From assembly GCF_044647545.1 (NCBI RefSeq), contig NZ_CP172818.1: DNA of 64,000 nucleotides; one strand, given 5' to 3'. A model generated the notes under the pieces. That model had not been told where the DNA came from. It ran no database searches and was given only the letters and a program-made list of their open reading frames with translations. How positions within the stretch are numbered: position 1 is the first letter of the stretch; every line of letters begins with the position of its first letter. The translations under genes and the position numbers were made by a program. Of the stretch, positions 17,175-23,389 are shown piece by piece. This DNA comes from Escherichia coli (GTDB lineage Bacteria; Pseudomonadota; Gammaproteobacteria; Enterobacterales; Enterobacteriaceae).

Positions 17175-18128
17175 TTAACCTATCTCCTGTAACGCATGTC
17201 TCTGGCGTTCGACGATATTGGTCCACAAATTGTCTTTATCGTCAGTCCACAAATTAATCAGCAAGGCAAAAAAGCGTTCAGCTGCCGGAGAAAGCACGGC
17301 ATCTTTGCGGCGAATAATCCCCAATGTCCGACGTATAACGGGTTCCACCAGTGGGATACCAATAATCGAAGAATAGGGCGCATGGGGCATTGCCAGACCA
17401 GGAAGCGCCGAAATCCCCAGTCCTGCCTCCACCAGTCCTAATGACGTCGAAAGATGACGCACTTCGTAAAACCAGTCCAGCTTCCAGGGCTTGTCGGCTA
17501 GCTGTTGTTCTATCAACAGTCGGTTGCCGCTGGAGGAGCGTACGCCAATCATTTTGTAACCCACTAACTCCTGCCATTCTACAAGCTGCTTTTTGGCCAA
17601 TGGATGGTCACGCCGACAGGCCAGCACGAACGGCTCGTTGACCAGTGGGGTAAAATCGATGGATGAATTTGTGACGTTGTTCATGTTTATGCCAAAGTCT
17701 GATTCGTTACACAGCACCGATTCCATGCAATTATTCGTGCCTTGTTCCAGAATCCGCACTTTAATATTGGGATACAGCTCATTAAATTTACCGATTGCCA
17801 GCGGTAAAAAATAAAATACTGCGGTCGGAATACACGCTAATGTCACCATACCACGATGATAAGCATTCATATCACGAATATTAAAAAGCGTTTCATCGAA
17901 TTTCTTTATTAATTCCCGCGCCTCCGGGAGCAATCTTTTTCCTGCTTTTGTTAACGTAACCTTGCGAGTTGTACGCTCAAATAGTTGGATATGTAAATCT
18001 TCCTCCATCTTTTTTATTCTTCGCGTTAATGCAGGTTGCGTAATATTGAGTAATTTAGCGGCATTGTTAAATGAACTGGACTCTGCCAGTATGACAAATG
18101 CCTTCATACTTGATAATTCATGCTTCAT
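17175..18128 (-). CDS. ybhD: LysR-type transcriptional regulator
   Basis: Start chosen at MKHELSSMKAFVILAESSSFNNAAKLLNITQPALTRRIKKME (LTTR HTH); divergent from ybhH. Confidence 0.88.
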   Translation of the reverse strand: MKHELSSMKAFVILAESSSFNNAAKLLNITQPALTRRIKKMEEDLHIQLFERTTRKVTLTKAGKRLLPEARELIKKFDETLFNIRDMNAYHRGMVTLACIPTAVFYFLPLAIGKFNELYPNIKVRILEQGTNNCMESVLCNESDFGINMNNVTNSSIDFTPLVNEPFVLACRRDHPLAKKQLVEWQELVGYKMIGVRSSSGNRLLIEQQLADKPWKLDWFYEVRHLSTSLGLVEAGLGISALPGLAMPHAPYSSIIGIPLVEPVIRRTLGIIRRKDAVLSPAAERFFALLINLWTDDKDNLWTNIVERQRHALQEIG

Positions 18129-18205
18129 TATTACTCCGGAAAATGGAAGCGTCGATTTTGGGTGGCTGGCCGTTAAAAATTTTAACTGCATTTAGCCAAC
18201 TTAAA

Positions 18206-18226
18206 TTAATGAAAAAAAGTTATTAA
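18206..18226. promoter_or_regulatory. putative LysR-type (T-N11-A) box in ybhD/ybhH divergent promoter
   Basis: TTAAT-N11-ATTAA dyad (ttaatgaaaaaaagttattaa) in the AT-rich 183-nt divergent intergenic region. Confidence 0.4.
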
Positions 18227-18311
18227 TCGTTGAGCTAAAGTCATTAGAGATGCTTTGCCCTTAATGTAACCATATCGCAATAAGTTATGTTTTTAAATTG
18301 AGGGCATTATT

Positions 18312-19364
18312 ATGAAAAAAATACCCTGCGTGATGATGCGAGGTGGAACCTCGAGGGGCGCGTTCCTGTTAGCGGAACATCTACCCGAAGATCAAACGCA
18401 GCGCGATAAAATATTGATGGCAATTATGGGTTCCGGTAACGATCTGGAAATTGACGGTATTGGCGGCGGTAATCCGCTGACCAGTAAAGTCGCCATTATT
18501 AGCCGCTCCAGCGATCCGCGTGCAGATGTCGATTATCTGTTTGCTCAAGTTATCGTCCATGAGCAACGTGTCGATACCACGCCTAACTGCGGCAATATGC
18601 TGTCTGGCGTTGGGGCATTCGCCATTGAAAATGGTTTGATTGCAGCGACTTCGCCAGTTACCCGCGTACGTATCCGCAACGTCAATACGGGTACGTTCAT
18701 CGAAGCTGATGTGCAAACGCCAAATGGTGTTGTCGAGTACGAGGGTAGCGCCAGAATTGACGGCGTACCGGGTACTGCCGCACCGGTTGCGCTCACTTTC
18801 CTGAATGCCGCCGGAACCAAAACCGGAAAAGTCTTCCCGACGGATAATCAGATTGATTATTTTGACGATGTGCCGGTGACCTGTATCGATATGGCGATGC
18901 CAGTTGTCATTATTCCTGCTGAATATCTGGGAAAAACAGGCTATGAATTACCGGCAGAGCTGGATGCCGACAAAGCATTATTAGCCCGCATTGAATCTAT
19001 CCGTCTACAAGCGGGTAAAGCAATGGGCTTAGGCGATGTCAGTAATATGGTTATCCCTAAACCTGTACTTATTTCTCCAGCGCAGAAAGGCGGGGCAATT
19101 AATGTGCGTTATTTTATGCCGCATTCTTGCCATCGCGCTTTGGCGATAACCGGTGCTATTGCTATTTCCAGTAGTTGTGCATTGGAAGGCACCGTCACCC
19201 GACAAATCGTCCCTTCTGTAGGATACGGCAATATCAATATTGAACACCCCAGTGGTGCGCTCGACGTTCATTTAAGTAATGAAGGTCAGGATGCCACGAC
19301 GTTACGCGCATCTGTTATTCGGACGACCAGAAAAATATTTTCCGGTGAAGTTTATCTTCCCTGA
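18312..19364 (+). CDS. ybhH: PrpF/2-methylaconitate isomerase-family protein
   Basis: 350-aa ORF starting MKKIPCVMMRGGTSRG, the N-terminus typical of PrpF-family isomerases; RBS upstream. Confidence 0.88.
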   Translation: MKKIPCVMMRGGTSRGAFLLAEHLPEDQTQRDKILMAIMGSGNDLEIDGIGGGNPLTSKVAIISRSSDPRADVDYLFAQVIVHEQRVDTTPNCGNMLSGVGAFAIENGLIAATSPVTRVRIRNVNTGTFIEADVQTPNGVVEYEGSARIDGVPGTAAPVALTFLNAAGTKTGKVFPTDNQIDYFDDVPVTCIDMAMPVVIIPAEYLGKTGYELPAELDADKALLARIESIRLQAGKAMGLGDVSNMVIPKPVLISPAQKGGAINVRYFMPHSCHRALAITGAIAISSSCALEGTVTRQIVPSVGYGNINIEHPSGALDVHLSNEGQDATTLRASVIRTTRKIFSGEVYLP

Positions 19365-19439
19365 AAAATTTTGTTGTCGTGATAATGACAATCAATAAAG
19401 GAATTCTGTATGAGTCATACAGAAAGAACAGGATATTAA

Positions 19440-20873
19440 ATGAATAAGAAATCGTTATGGAAGCTAATTCTGATATTAGCAATCCCATGTATTATTGGCT
19501 TTATGCCAGCTCCAGCAGGATTAAGCGAACTGGCGTGGGTGCTTTTTGGTATTTACCTGGCGGCCATTGTGGGGCTGGTTATCAAGCCTTTCCCGGAACC
19601 TGTCGTACTGTTAATTGCCGTCGCCGCATCGATGGTAGTGGTGGGTAACTTATCAGGTGGGGAATTTAAAACCACCGCTGTATTAAGCGGTTACTCTTCC
19701 GGTACCACCTGGCTGGTGTTTTCTGCGTTTACTTTAAGCGCCGCGTTTGTAACCACAGGCTTAGGTAAACGTATTGCCTATCTGCTGATTGGTAAAATTG
19801 GTAGCACTACCCTGGGTCTGGGTTACGTTACGGTATTTCTCGATCTGGTACTGGCTCCGGCAACACCGTCTAACACCGCGCGTGCGGGCGGCATCGTGTT
19901 ACCGATCATCAACAGCGTGGCAGTGGCTTTGGGATCAGAACCGGAAAAAAGTCCGCGTCGTGTTGGACATTACCTGATGATGTCCATTTACATGGTCACC
20001 AAAACCACCAGCTATATGTTCTTTACCGCAATGGCGGGGAACATTCTGGCGCTGAAAATGATCAACGACATTCTGCACCTGCAAATTAGCTGGGGTGGAT
20101 GGGCGCTAGCCGCCGGATTGCCTGGCATCATTATGCTGCTGGTCACCCCGCTGGTGATTTACACCATGTATCCGCCAGAAATTAAGAAGGTGGATAACAA
20201 AACCATCGCCAAAGCGGGCCTTGCCGAACTGGGACCGATGAAAATCCGCGAAAAAATGCTGCTCGGTGTCTTCGTGCTGGCGCTGCTGGGCTGGATTTTC
20301 AGTAAGTCACTGGGGGTTGATGAATCCACCGTGGCAATCGTTGTTATGGCGACTATGCTGCTGCTGGGTATCGTTACCTGGGAAGACGTGGTTAAAAATA
20401 AAGGCGGCTGGAATACCTTAATCTGGTACGGCGGTATTATCGGCTTAAGCTCCTTATTATCGAAAGTTAAATTCTTCGAATGGTTAGCTGAAGTCTTTAA
20501 AAATAACCTGGCATTTGATGGTCACGGTAACGTTGCTTTCTTCGTTATTATTTTCCTCAGCATCATCGTGCGTTATTTCTTCGCTTCCGGTAGTGCCTAT
20601 ATCGTTGCCATGTTACCGGTATTTGCCATGCTGGCGAACGTCTCCGGCGCGCCGTTAATGTTAACCGCGCTGGCACTGTTGTTCTCTAACTCCTATGGCG
20701 GCATGGTTACTCACTATGGCGGCGCGGCAGGTCCGGTCATCTTTGGCGTGGGTTACAACGATATTAAATCCTGGTGGTTGGTCGGTGCGGTACTGACGAT
20801 ATTAACCTTCCTGGTGCATATCACCCTCGGCGTGTGGTGGTGGAATATGCTGATCGGCTGGAACATGCTGTAA
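19440..20873 (+). CDS. ybhI: DASS-family (divalent anion:Na+ symporter-like) transporter
   Basis: 477-aa polytopic membrane ORF directly downstream of ybhH on the same strand. Confidence 0.9.
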   Translation: MNKKSLWKLILILAIPCIIGFMPAPAGLSELAWVLFGIYLAAIVGLVIKPFPEPVVLLIAVAASMVVVGNLSGGEFKTTAVLSGYSSGTTWLVFSAFTLSAAFVTTGLGKRIAYLLIGKIGSTTLGLGYVTVFLDLVLAPATPSNTARAGGIVLPIINSVAVALGSEPEKSPRRVGHYLMMSIYMVTKTTSYMFFTAMAGNILALKMINDILHLQISWGGWALAAGLPGIIMLLVTPLVIYTMYPPEIKKVDNKTIAKAGLAELGPMKIREKMLLGVFVLALLGWIFSKSLGVDESTVAIVVMATMLLLGIVTWEDVVKNKGGWNTLIWYGGIIGLSSLLSKVKFFEWLAEVFKNNLAFDGHGNVAFFVIIFLSIIVRYFFASGSAYIVAMLPVFAMLANVSGAPLMLTALALLFSNSYGGMVTHYGGAAGPVIFGVGYNDIKSWWLVGAVLTILTFLVHITLGVWWWNMLIGWNML

Positions 20874-20874
20874 A

Positions 20875-20998
20875 TATACTCGTCATACTTCAAGTTGCAT
20901 GTGCTGCGTCTGCGTTCGCTCACCCCAGTCACTTACTTATGTAAGCTCCTGGGGATTCACTCGCTTGTCGCCTTCCTGCAACTCGAATTATTTAGAGT
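20875..20998 (-). repeat. ERIC (IRU) element between ybhI and ybhJ
   Basis: Reverse complement reads ...GAGTGAATCCCCAGGAGCTTACATAAGTAAGTGACTGGGGTGAGCGAACGCAGACGCAGCACATGCAACTTGAAGTATGACGAGTATA, matching the ERIC consensus from memory; ends approximate. Confidence 0.7.
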
Positions 20999-21055
20999 AT
21001 ATCCATTTATTATCTTTCTGCGCACTTCACGGTGCGCAGATATCTGGAGCATTTG

Positions 21056-23317
21056 ATGATCAAGTTATCTGAAAAAGGCGTGTTTCTCGCCAGTAATAAC
21101 GAAATAATTGCCGAAGAATATTTCACCGGCGAAATTAAAAAAGAAGAAGCCAAAAAAGGCACTATTGCCTGGTCTATTCTCTCTTCTCATAATACGTCCG
21201 GAAATATGGATAAACTTAAAATTAAGTTTGATTCATTAGCCTCTCACGATATTACCTTTGTTGGTATTGTACAGACCGCTAAAGCGTCCGGTATGGAACG
21301 TTTCCCGCTGCCGTATGTGCTGACCAACTGCCATAACTCACTCTGCGCCGTCGGCGGCACCATTAACGGTGATGACCATGTTTTTGGTTTATCGGCGGCC
21401 CAGCGTTATGGCGGTATTTTTGTGCCACCGCATATTGCGGTCATCCATCAATATATGCGTGAAATGATGGCAGGCGGCGGCAAAATGATCCTCGGGTCAG
21501 ACAGCCATACCCGTTACGGTGCGTTAGGGACAATGGCGGTTGGCGAGGGCGGCGGCGAGCTGGTAAAACAACTGCTTAATGACACCTGGGATATCGACTA
21601 TCCGGGCGTGGTTGCGGTGCATCTGACCGGAAAACCAGCGCTGTATGTGGGGCCACAGGATGTGGCGCTGGCTATCATCGGTGCCGTGTTCAAAAACGGT
21701 TACGTCAAAAACAAAGTGATGGAGTTCGTAGGTCCCGGTGTTGCAGCGCTCTCTACCGATTTCCGTAACAGCGTTGACGTGATGACCACTGAAACGACCT
21801 GTTTAAGTTCTGTCTGGCAAACCGATGAAGAAGTCCATAACTGGCTGACGCTGCACGGTCGCGGCCAGGATTACTGCCAACTTAACCCTCAACCAATGGC
21901 GTACTACGATGGCTGCATCAGCGTTGATTTAAGCGCCATCAAACCAATGATTGCGCTGCCATTCCACCCGAGCAACGTGTATGAAATCGACACGCTGAAC
22001 CAGAACCTGACCGACATTCTGCGTGAGATTGAAATTGAGTCCGAACGTGTGGCGCACGGTAAAGCCAGACTCTCGCTGCTGGATAAAGTGGAAAATGGTC
22101 GCCTGAAAGTGCAGCAGGGGATTATCGCGGGCTGTTCTGGCGGTAACTATGAAAACGTCATCGCGGCGGCGAATGCGCTGCGCGGTCAATCCTGTGGCAA
22201 TGACACCTTCTCGTTAGCGGTTTACCCGTCATCACAGCCCGTGTTTATGGATCTCGCCAAAAAAGGTGTGGTAGCAGATTTGATTGGCGCAGGCGCAATC
22301 ATCAGAACCGCGTTCTGCGGCCCATGCTTTGGCGCGGGCGATACACCAATCAATAACGGTTTGAGTATTCGCCACACCACGCGTAACTTCCCGAACCGCG
22401 AAGGCTCTAAGCCAGCTAATGGTCAGATGTCAGCGGTGGCGTTGATGGACGCTCGTTCTATCGCTGCGACTGCGGCAAACGGTGGCTATTTAACCTCTGC
22501 CAGCGAACTCGATTGCTGGGACAACGTGCCGGAGTACGCCTTCGATGTAACGCCGTATAAAAACCGTGTTTATCAGGGCTTTGTGAAAGGGGCGACCCAG
22601 CAACCGCTGATTTACGGACCGAACATTAAAGACTGGCCGGAATTGGGTGCGCTGACTGACAATATCGTCCTCAAAGTGTGCTCGAAGATCCTCGACGAAG
22701 TGACCACCACCGACGAACTGATTCCTTCCGGTGAAACCTCTTCTTATCGTTCAAATCCGATTGGTCTGGCGGAGTTTACCCTGTCACGCCGCGATCCAGG
22801 TTATGTTGGTAGAAGTAAAGCGACTGCTGAGCTGGAAAATCAGCGTCTGGCGGGAAATGTCAGCGAGCTGACAGAGGTGTTTGCGCGCATTAAGCAGATT
22901 GCTGGTCAGGAGCATATTGATCCGCTGCAAACTGAAATTGGCAGCATGGTCTATGCGGTGAAACCAGGCGATGGTTCTGCGCGTGAGCAGGCGGCGAGCT
23001 GTCAGCGTGTGATTGGCGGTCTGGCGAATATTGCCGAGGAGTACGCGACTAAACGCTACCGTTCTAACGTCATCAACTGGGGGATGTTACCGCTGCAGAT
23101 GGCGGAAGCACCGAACTTTGACGTAGGTGATTACATTTACATCCCTGGCATTAAAGCAGCGCTGGATAATCCGGGTACGACGTTTAAAGGTTATGTGATC
23201 CATGAAGATGCGCCGGTAACAGAGATTACGCTCTATATGGAAAGTCTGACTGCTGAAGAGCGCGAGATTATCAAGGCGGGTAGTTTGATTAACTTCAATA
23301 AAAACCGTCAGATGTAA
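21056..23317 (+). CDS. ybhJ: aconitase-family protein
   Basis: ORF contains aconitase-type motifs [23 protein letters not shown] and GDGSAREQ; start taken at MIKLSEKG (alternative ATG at 21032). Confidence 0.88.
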
Positions 23318-23389
23318 AAAAAGGCGCTATGAAATATAGCGCCCAGTTTCATTAACCCGATGGTTCAGACTATCGGGTTTTCTTTTTTT
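23316..23389. terminator. two hairpins between convergent ybhJ and ybhC (one terminator per strand)
   Basis: A7 + ggcgctat-N5-atagcgcc (T-run on minus strand, ybhC side) and cccgatag-like stem + TTTTCTTTTTTT (ybhJ side). Confidence 0.7.

Follow-up and report, generated by a model that had tools for sequence, protein, structure and literature searches.

The assimilation of trans-aconitate by a dedicated gene module was described in 2024 for Bacillus velezensis FZB42, where the LysR-type activator gene tarR is divergent from tarAB, which encodes a PrpF-superfamily aconitate isomerase (TarA) and an MFS importer (TarB) (PMC11495376). According to a survey in the same study (Table S6), other Enterobacteriaceae, including Escherichia fergusonii, carry TarA homologs with about 38-40% identity to TarA. 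Here, we examined a cluster of similar layout, ybhD / ybhH-ybhI-ybhJ, which occupies positions 17,175-23,317 of a 64,000-nucleotide stretch of Escherichia coli DNA (RefSeq assembly GCF_044647545.1, contig NZ_CP172818.1; the whole stretch is called the window). From the family membership of the four products and from the gene neighbourhoods of their relatives, we consider it fairly probable that ybhD / ybhHIJ is an inducible module for the use of exogenous aconitate, above all the plant acid trans-aconitate. The parts of the cluster on which this proposal rests are the following:

17,175-18,128, minus strand: ybhD, LysR-type transcriptional regulator, 317 aa (the program-called open reading frame (ORF) reaches 18,191; the RefSeq start is at 18,128)
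18,129-18,311, 183 bp: ybhD-ybhH divergent control region, spacer sequence
18,312-19,364, plus strand: ybhH, PrpF-superfamily isomerase, 350 aa, N-terminus MKKIPCVMMRGGTSRG; proposed aconitate cis/trans isomerase
19,440-20,873, plus strand: ybhI, DASS-family carrier, 477 aa; proposed tricarboxylate/dicarboxylate exchanger
21,056-23,317, plus strand: ybhJ, aconitase-family [4Fe-4S] hydratase, 753 aa; proposed aconitate hydratase

Over its whole length, the region agrees at 100% with E. coli chromosomes that carry the annotations ybhD/ybhH/ybhI/ybhJ, and it was found at a coverage of at least 80% in 5315 of 5426 complete genomes. The corresponding RefSeq product names are 'LysR family transcriptional regulator', '4-oxalomesaconate tautomerase', 'anion permease' and 'hydratase' (ybhD, ybhH, ybhI and ybhJ, respectively). 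For ybhJ, the program-called ORF begins at a GTG at 21,032; the MIKL/MITL start present in all orthologs favours 21,056. A preliminary description of this DNA, made from its letters, had read the cluster as three same-strand genes for a PrpF-like isomerase, a DASS-type transporter and a full-length aconitase-family protein, with a divergent LysR-type regulator. The ORFs lie exactly where it had placed them, and each of the four family assignments was upheld by the profile searches reported below. The two sequence results that it had named as refuting its idea, a YbhH outside the PrpF family and a YbhJ lacking the catalytic residues, were not obtained. Its remark that no substrate had been assigned to the cluster is also essentially right, as the literature that we found on ybhH, ybhI, ybhJ and ybhD gives only a malate-related suggestion and holds no functional study beyond the one that made it (PMC9068703).

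YbhH and its relation to measured aconitate isomerases

Residues 1-350 of YbhH align with positions 1-371 of the Pfam PrpF model (PF04303, E = 3.7e-168), which places the protein within the PrpF family. On the model for PrpF proper (2-methylaconitate isomerase, TIGR02334), it scored 186.9 bits and did not reach the cutoff of 440.55. A crystal structure of YbhH has been deposited (6OTV, 'putative isomerase YbhH'); our literature search found no publication describing it. The next solved relatives are LigU ((4E)-oxalomesaconate delta-isomerase), followed by methylitaconate isomerase and PrpF. The catalytic pair of LigU, Lys66 and Cys100, aligns with Lys59 (LTSKVA) and Cys93 (PNCGN) of YbhH, so that the Lys/Cys pair is kept. 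Judged by these scores and alignments, YbhH is a member of the LigU/GalD-like branch and not of PrpF proper.

YbhH shares 63-68% identity with proteins from Klebsiella, Pseudomonas and Dickeya (63% with the Pseudomonas clade), compared to 45-46% with LigU. The Pseudomonas gene lies in a group in which a LysR gene is followed divergently by the isomerase, a DctA-type carrier, a carrier of the CitMHS citrate:H+ symporter family and an OprD-family porin; in Dickeya, a LysR gene is followed divergently by the isomerase, an MFS carrier, an FAA-hydrolase-family protein and citC, citD, citE and citF. No gallate or protocatechuate genes are annotated in the seven YbhH-clade loci (E. coli, Klebsiella, Pseudomonas, Dickeya and Providencia).

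A link to enzyme activities is provided by the assay of 16 TarA homologs from environmental isolates growing on trans-aconitate (PMC11495376). The Pseudomonas enzymes AI-7-1, AI-16-1, AI-32-1 and AI-41-1 had 88-101% of the forward aconitate isomerase activity of TarA, with reverse activities of 107-115% (AI-7-1 and AI-16-1) and 12-16% (AI-32-1 and AI-41-1), and the PrpF-proper homologs of the same strains, which start with MAHVPQV and similar, had 2-4% forward activity (PMC11495376). The primers used for these four enzymes encode MQRIPCV... and ...RLAG, which are the termini of the YbhH-like Pseudomonas clade; all 18 gene-specific bases of the AI-32-1 forward primer agree with our Pseudomonas locus (L088), as do 16 of the 18 in the AI-7-1 primer. 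Going by these matches, the clade nearest to YbhH very probably contains true aconitate isomerases.

YbhI and its recurrence beside citrate lyase genes

YbhI scored 553.5 bits on the DASS model TIGR00785 (cutoff 198.6) over residues 23-468. Its nearest solved relatives are the chloroplast carriers DiT1 and DiT2.1 and the DASS entries 6WTW/6WU1, which we take to be LaINDY. DiT1, DiT2.1 and LaINDY are malate or dicarboxylate exchangers and not Na+ symporters, and this relationship suggests that YbhI would also work by exchange (antiport). In addition, YbhI is paralogous over its full length to the citrate/succinate antiporter CitT (33% identity), and E. coli ECONIH1, the chromosome of which matches the 6.1-kb region at 100%, carries citCDEFXG-citT.

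Orthologs of YbhI were found in several citrate-related settings. In Providencia rustigianii (L092, 512-8577), citC, citD, citE, citF, citX and citG are followed by the YbhI ortholog and then the YbhH ortholog; the carrier sits where E. coli has citT and is 65% identical to YbhI, compared to 36% for CitT. In Serratia fonticola (L094, 1-7434), the order is citF, citX, citG, a hydrolase, an AcnB-type aconitase, which is a paralog, and the YbhI ortholog. The cluster of Klebsiella aerogenes, ybhD / ybhH, ybhI, an extra DASS gene and ybhJ, directly adjoins the citrate-fermentation locus (citAB, oadGAB and citS); the extra DASS gene (420 aa, L086 6683-7945) occupies the position of the repeat-filled ybhI-ybhJ spacer of E. 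coli. A Snodgrassella homolog has uninformative neighbours. This carrier recurs with citrate lyase and, in addition, with either an isomerase or an aconitase; as far as gene context can tell, the import of aconitate is the best explanation, with isocitrate as the alternative.

YbhJ keeps most residues of an aconitase active site

YbhJ has a Pfam Aconitase domain at residues 41-470 (E = 7e-87) and an Aconitase_C domain at residues 638-684, in the domain order of monomeric aconitases, and reaches its own model, NF008503 'hydratase', with 1535 bits. YbhJ and its family profile were compared by alignment with the mitochondrial aconitases of pig and cow and with short aconitases of the canonical type. 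The four YbhJ motifs that the preliminary description had quoted are all present in the translation and align with Cys358, Cys421/424, Arg447/452 and Ser642/Arg644 of aconitase. The three cluster cysteines are confirmed by the alignment with the mitochondrial enzyme, Cys358, Cys421 and Cys424 corresponding to Cys360, Cys421 and Cys424 of YbhJ, and are invariant in 76 orthologs. Among the catalytic residues, Ser642, His101, His147, Asp165, His167 and Glu262 of aconitase correspond to Ser641, His93, His131, Asp149, His151 and Glu246 of YbhJ, and all four carboxylate-binding arginines (447, 452, 580 and 644) are kept, as Arg443, Arg448, Arg565 and Arg643. In aconitase, Arg580 binds the third carboxylate of the substrate, and it is lost in isopropylmalate isomerases; its retention argues for a tricarboxylate as the probable substrate of YbhJ.

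A route for itaconate or citraconate, modelled on Mii-DmdAB of Eubacterium barkeri, was dropped because Arg580, which YbhJ keeps, implies a third carboxylate and because the partners of YbhJ are citrate enzymes. Separately, five YbhJ-like proteins of 32-37% identity (P0147, P0154, P0215, P0217 and P0229) have lost the Fe-S cysteines and most catalytic residues and keep the N- and C-terminal regions; they are candidate pseudo-enzymes.

YbhJ orthologs lie beside citrate enzymes in other phyla

A scan of one genome per species gave at least 596 YbhJ relatives. The best 80 of these are mostly non-enterobacterial (Lachnospiraceae, Enterocloster, Hungatella, Clostridium, Collinsella, Megasphaera, Synergistales and Erysipelotrichaceae), with 66-73% identity to YbhJ. 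Such identity across phyla suggests a probable horizontal transfer of ybhJ. To survey the neighbours, ORFs were called in all loci and clustered, and the recurrent neighbours were annotated. With Enterobacterales and Collinsella set aside, a citrate enzyme lies within 5 kb of the YbhJ ortholog in 24 of 49 loci (citrate synthase in 11, isocitrate dehydrogenase, IDH, in 14 and citrate lyase in 8), and many of the remaining loci are short contigs.

Several of these arrangements are operon-like. In L017, the YbhJ ortholog, citrate synthase and IDH follow each other, separated by 29 and 3 nt; the citrate synthase scores above the cutoff of its NCBIfam model, and the aconitase-like protein reaches 1387 bits on NF008503. 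In L024, a LysR gene is followed divergently by the YbhJ ortholog, citD, citE, citF, citG and citC, and in a Synergistales locus (L039) the YbhJ ortholog is followed by an NADP-IDH. In three further loci (L014, Lacrimispora amygdalina; L058, Lachnospiraceae JC7; and L054), a CitMHS/MatC-like carrier, a PrpF-like protein, the YbhJ ortholog and citrate lyase genes form one string, with the carrier and the PrpF-like gene in either order and with a divergent LysR gene ahead of the string in L014 and L058. By gene content, these strings are the equivalent of the E. coli gene set physically joined to a citrate-cleaving enzyme. No YbhI homolog adjoins a YbhJ ortholog outside Enterobacterales in the loci surveyed, and CitMHS/MatC-like carriers are present there instead. 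From these neighbourhoods, we conclude that the YbhJ family would act on citrate, aconitate and isocitrate and that it is, most simply, a presumptive aconitase.

Two other types of context were seen. In the Collinsella loci (L057, L059-L071 and L073-L084), the YbhJ ortholog stands alone between dnaK/dnaJ/hspR-like genes and a clpB-like gene, an observation made on sequence; this context appears uninformative on the substrate and lacks metabolic partners, as would be expected for a housekeeping enzyme. A second type of Clostridia cluster (L048, 8567-15872; also L005 and L022) combines an RraA-like protein resembling 4-carboxy-4-hydroxy-2-oxoadipate (CHA) aldolase / oxaloacetate decarboxylase, a PRK07229 aconitase, a YbhJ paralog of about 48% identity, a PrpF-like protein and a 390-aa IDH-like protein, and probably represents a different tricarboxylate pathway.

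YbhD and the divergent control region

YbhD matched 54 LysR-type models end to end, and none of their equivalog cutoffs was reached. RNA-seq has shown that ybhH expression rises strongly when ybhD is deleted, and one ChIP-exo site, with ybhH/ybhI as YbhD targets, was reported in the same work (PMC9068703). The 183-bp spacer between ybhD and ybhH contains blocks that are conserved across Escherichia, Citrobacter and Edwardsiella, and includes one candidate regulatory site:

18,205-18,227: candidate YbhD operator, perfect inverted repeat ATTAAT-N11-ATTAAT of the LysR T-N11-A type

In six enterobacterial sequences the left ATTAAT half-site does not vary and the right one is conserved in part, and we propose this repeat as a putative operator for YbhD. 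Matches to the sigma-70 or CRP consensus in the spacer were no better than chance, a promoter scan of the region gave 7 sites compared to 9.4 in shuffled sequences, and no CRP-like site with three or fewer mismatches was found in the spacer, despite the listing of ybhH by SELEX.

Proposed pathway and alternative explanations

We propose the following route, in which direct support in E. coli concerns the repression step and the other steps are inferred. YbhD would bind the divergent spacer, at a site for which ATTAAT-N11-ATTAAT is the candidate, and hold ybhHIJ off, the repression being taken from the literature; by analogy with TarR, the inducer would presumably be trans-aconitate. YbhI, as a DASS carrier of the exchanger branch, would import the tricarboxylate, probably against a C4-dicarboxylate (succinate or malate), as CitT does for citrate. 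YbhH would convert trans- to cis-aconitate by a 1,3-proton shift involving Lys59 and Cys93, as its homology suggests, and YbhJ, on the strength of its conserved residues and ortholog operons, would hydrate cis-aconitate to citrate and/or isocitrate. The neighbourhoods in other species point to two possible fates of the product, citrate lyase CitDEF under anaerobic conditions or the tricarboxylic acid (TCA) cycle via Icd. Canonical aconitases are inhibited by trans-aconitate, and a dedicated aconitase might serve anaerobic expression or provide insensitivity to this acid. The preliminary description had suggested a trans-aconitate-like or methyl-aconitate-like acid that is funnelled into the TCA cycle. 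The former substrate is supported by the neighbourhoods of all three structural genes and by the enzyme data on the apparent sister clade, and the methyl-aconitate alternative is unlikely; as a sink, citrate lyase, and with it anaerobic citrate fermentation, is at least as likely as the TCA cycle.

A number of observations weigh against this proposal. E. coli K-12 is not known to grow on aconitate, and in the literature we found no enzyme, transport or growth data for the E. coli proteins. YbhJ scored below every curated aconitase cutoff (AcnA, AcnB, mitochondrial and PRK07229), the best score being that on PRK07229, 342 against 612 bits. Asp100 of aconitase, the partner of the catalytic His101, is replaced in YbhJ by Cys92, within a motif, NCHN, that is invariant in the YbhJ family, where canonical relatives have DH; further substitutions are Asn258 to Val, Ser643 to Ala and Gln72 to His. 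Since the 19-residue signature HCHHDSHVECCCTRRRSAR is identical in 76 YbhJ-family sequences (59-100% identity, four phyla), the substitutions are a family trait and not a sign of decay. In four Clostridia loci (L022, L048, L053 and L055), the YbhJ ortholog lies beside a canonical PRK07229 aconitase, and the two types may not be fully redundant. Moreover, Blank et al. are said to have found in 2002 that the inactivation of ybhJ left the residual aconitase activity of acnAB mutants unchanged, which is the expected outcome because ybhJ is repressed.

On the side of the isomerase, YbhH passed the model for 4-oxalomesaconate tautomerase (NF033377, 'OMA_tautomer') with 515.2 bits (cutoff 440). The same cutoff was also passed by the Pseudomonas, Dickeya and Providencia proteins (L088 7001-8077, L090 7001-8092 and L092 7522-8577) in citrate-type contexts, and the model seems too broad. 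As these loci hold citrate carriers or citrate lyase and are without gallate or protocatechuate genes, the RefSeq name '4-oxalomesaconate tautomerase' is probably an over-annotation. The measured Pseudomonas enzymes are tied to the YbhH clade by their primer-encoded termini and not by full sequences. In addition, AI-79 of Providencia rettgeri had less than 1% isomerase activity, in an isolate that grows on trans-aconitate (PMC11495376). This protein ends in ...GDVYVP like the enterobacterial YbhH orthologs and is, by its C-terminus, probably one of them. Its primer starts at the internal Met of MRGGTSK, leaving a construct without the first 8 residues (MKQIPCVL in P. rustigianii), and the inactivity may be an artefact of gene-start annotation. 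Lastly, the sole reported phenotype of the ybhD deletion concerns L-malate: growth in glycerol minimal medium was affected only when L-malate was added (Rodionova et al. 2022, PMC9068703).

This last result is the basis of the view that the operon mainly serves the utilisation of C4-dicarboxylates, L-malate in particular (PMC9068703), with which the kinship of YbhI to DiT1, DiT2.1 and 6WTW/6WU1 also agrees. However, the use of malate requires neither a PrpF-type isomerase nor an Fe-S aconitase-like hydratase, and the ortholog contexts are centred on citrate; a derepressed exchanger taking malate as a counter-substrate would account for the phenotype without malate being the substrate of the pathway. 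We therefore regard a malate operon as improbable. Much the same holds for the RefSeq reading, in which YbhH would be a GalD/LigU enzyme, the cluster would handle oxalomesaconate derived from lignin or gallate and YbhJ would produce 4-carboxy-4-hydroxy-2-oxoadipate. Oxalomesaconate is a close structural analogue of aconitate, and YbhH, apart from its NF033377 score, is 46% identical to crystallised LigU and keeps the catalytic pair. Nevertheless, none of the seven YbhH-clade loci has an annotated ring-cleavage dioxygenase or LigJ/GalB-type hydratase, the enterobacterial, Pseudomonas and Dickeya genes of the clade were seen to have no LigK/GalC-type aldolase beside them, and YbhH is nearer to this clade, with its citrate carriers and citrate lyase, than to LigU. 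In addition, oxalomesaconate arises by aerobic ring cleavage, a poor fit with the gut anaerobes that hold YbhJ orthologs. Even less probable is an AcnD/PrpF-like pair for 2-methylcitrate and 2-methylaconitate in propionate catabolism, as in Shewanella: the pairing of an aconitase-family enzyme with a PrpF-family isomerase is the same (PMC5690661), but YbhJ scored 62 bits on the AcnD model (cutoff 1420) and YbhH 187 on PrpF (cutoff 440), prpB and prpC are absent nearby and the carrier in the operon implies an external substrate. Moreover, for the step in question E. coli already uses PrpD.

A different acid of the citrate family is unlikely, though the most probable of the alternatives: cis-aconitate or isocitrate alone, homoaconitate or homocitrate, or another unsaturated tricarboxylate of plant or host origin, on which YbhH would perform the allylic shift and YbhJ the hydration. 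The four arginines of YbhJ point to a tricarboxylate without fixing which one, the Serratia locus, with an aconitase and the YbhI ortholog without an isomerase, fits the uptake of cis-aconitate or isocitrate, and the occurrence of the YbhJ paralog with canonical aconitase, PrpF-like, Iso_dh-like and RraA-like proteins in other Clostridia indicates that the family has diversified. On the other hand, the activity of the apparent sister clade of YbhH was measured on aconitate, and the partners are citrate synthase, IDH and citrate lyase and not enzymes of homocitrate or isopropylmalate. The same enzymes might also run in reverse, from citrate through cis- to trans-aconitate and export, like tbrAB of Bacillus thuringiensis; aconitate isomerases are reversible, TarA and TbrA are interchangeable and the sequence of an exchanger does not tell in which direction it works. 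We give this very little weight, given that the recurrent links are with citrate lyase and with partners of the uptake type (OprD-family porin, CitMHS and DctA), and given the growth on trans-aconitate of the Pseudomonas isolates whose enzymes have matching termini and of the Providencia isolate. Finally, YbhJ could be an inactive paralog with a regulatory or stress role and a coincidental neighbourhood. It has been called catalytically inactive with reference to Blank et al. 2002, and its deletion was reported to cause sensitivity to H2O2 and low NADPH (PMC4054840); the replacement of Asp100 is in line with this. Yet none of the cluster ligands, nor any of the remaining catalytic residues, varies among 76 sequences of four phyla, the nonsynonymous to synonymous substitution ratio (dN/dS) of ybhJ is about 0.04, orthologs lie in citrate synthase-IDH operons and the truly degenerate, cysteine-less relatives look quite different from YbhJ, which makes an inactive protein hardly credible. 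The acnAB mutant result, as it is reported, speaks merely to the absence of a ybhJ share in the residual activity.

Going further than the aconitate module itself, we put forward one idea tentatively, as possible and not as the expected case. YbhJ-type proteins would form a distinct class of aconitase, with Cys-His in place of the otherwise universal Asp-His, that would serve many gut Clostridia, Collinsella and Synergistales as their working aconitase and give E. coli a third functional one; Enterobacterales would have received it horizontally and joined it to the isomerase and the exchanger for the anaerobic fermentation of trans-aconitate via citrate lyase. Such an enzyme would possibly tolerate trans-aconitate. 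If the proposal as a whole is true, four conserved E. coli genes gain a substrate and a pathway and the crystal structure of YbhH gains a function, and trans-aconitate, which is abundant in grasses and cereals, joins the carbon sources that gut Enterobacteriaceae can ferment. A probable mis-annotation in RefSeq would be corrected across Enterobacterales and Pseudomonas, and a new aconitase subfamily would be added, apparently serving the oxidative branch of the TCA cycle in many abundant gut anaerobes.

Conservation, flanks and other elements of the locus

In E. coli, the locus lies between pgl and the group ybhC, ybhB and bioA. Purifying selection on each of the four genes is strong, with dN/dS of about 0.02-0.08 relative to Citrobacter and Edwardsiella, values that are approximate because dS is saturated. 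The G+C content is 42-47% over ybhD-ybhH (17,500-19,500) and 52-53% in the flanks, the Edwardsiella proteins are 79-85% identical to those of E. coli, as close as those of Citrobacter, and Klebsiella carries the cluster at another chromosomal site than E. coli. Together, these features hint at a possible mobility of the cluster within Enterobacterales. Three further elements lie in or next to the cluster:

19,404-19,424: palindrome TTCTGTATGAgTCATACAGAA with a 9-bp stem, in the 75-bp ybhH-ybhI spacer
20,876-21,012: ERIC/IRU-type repeat, filling the 182-bp ybhI-ybhJ spacer
23,323-23,379: pair of hairpins where ybhJ and ybhC converge; the second, with a T-run after it, resembles a terminator

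The palindrome is not followed by a T-run and is thus not a terminator by the rule of the scan; it has the form CTG-N11-CAG, one base over the length of a LexA box. The repeat includes both classical ERIC primer sequences. Its median copy number per E. coli genome is 5, and it folds as a long hairpin with imperfect pairing (-42.6 kcal/mol, z = -5.6).

Comparison with described systems

The ybh genes are already known and annotated, and trans-aconitate assimilation modules are of a kind described in 2024 (PMC11495376). What would be new is a DASS exchanger in place of an MFS importer, an aconitase of the cluster's own with Cys at position 100, and the connection to citrate lyase in relatives. 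In tarR/tarAB as in the ybh cluster, a divergent LysR gene lies about 170-180 bp upstream of an operon in which a PrpF-superfamily isomerase comes first and a carboxylate importer follows, and the operator candidates are AT-rich 6-bp palindromes. The two differ in that YbhI is an exchanger-type DASS protein and TarB an MFS importer, in the dedicated aconitase-family gene that the ybh cluster adds, and in the mode of control, as YbhD is a repressor (in one data set) and TarR an activator. The distance between the isomerases is also considerable, and for YbhH itself the range of about 38-40% identity to TarA is extrapolated from its enterobacterial homologs. With citCDEFXG-citT of E. coli, the cluster shares the paralogy of YbhI and CitT and, through the Providencia ortholog, the position of citT after citG; unlike the cit genes, ybhHIJ would add an isomerase and a hydratase upstream of citrate, lies about 160 kb away in E. 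coli and is under LysR control, whereas the cit genes adjoin the two-component system DpiAB.

The individual enzymes can be compared in the same way. YbhJ has the domain order, the three cysteines, the catalytic residues and the four arginines of the Aquifex/mitochondrial-type aconitases (PRK07229; pig heart, 7ACN), but differs from them by about 100 extra residues in two insertions and by the Cys, Val, Ala and His at the positions of Asp100, Asn258, Ser643 and Gln72. YbhH resembles LigU/GalD (PDB 6P3H/J/K) in its 46% identity, its Lys/Cys pair and its membership of the class that performs a 1,3-allylic proton shift on a tricarboxylate; it is set apart by its own clade (63-68%), which has citrate contexts and is without protocatechuate or gallate genes. 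In AcnD-PrpF of Shewanella oneidensis, finally, an aconitase-family enzyme is likewise paired with a PrpF-family isomerase, but YbhJ and YbhH lie far under the cutoffs of these models, and the ybh cluster has no prp genes and contains a carrier.

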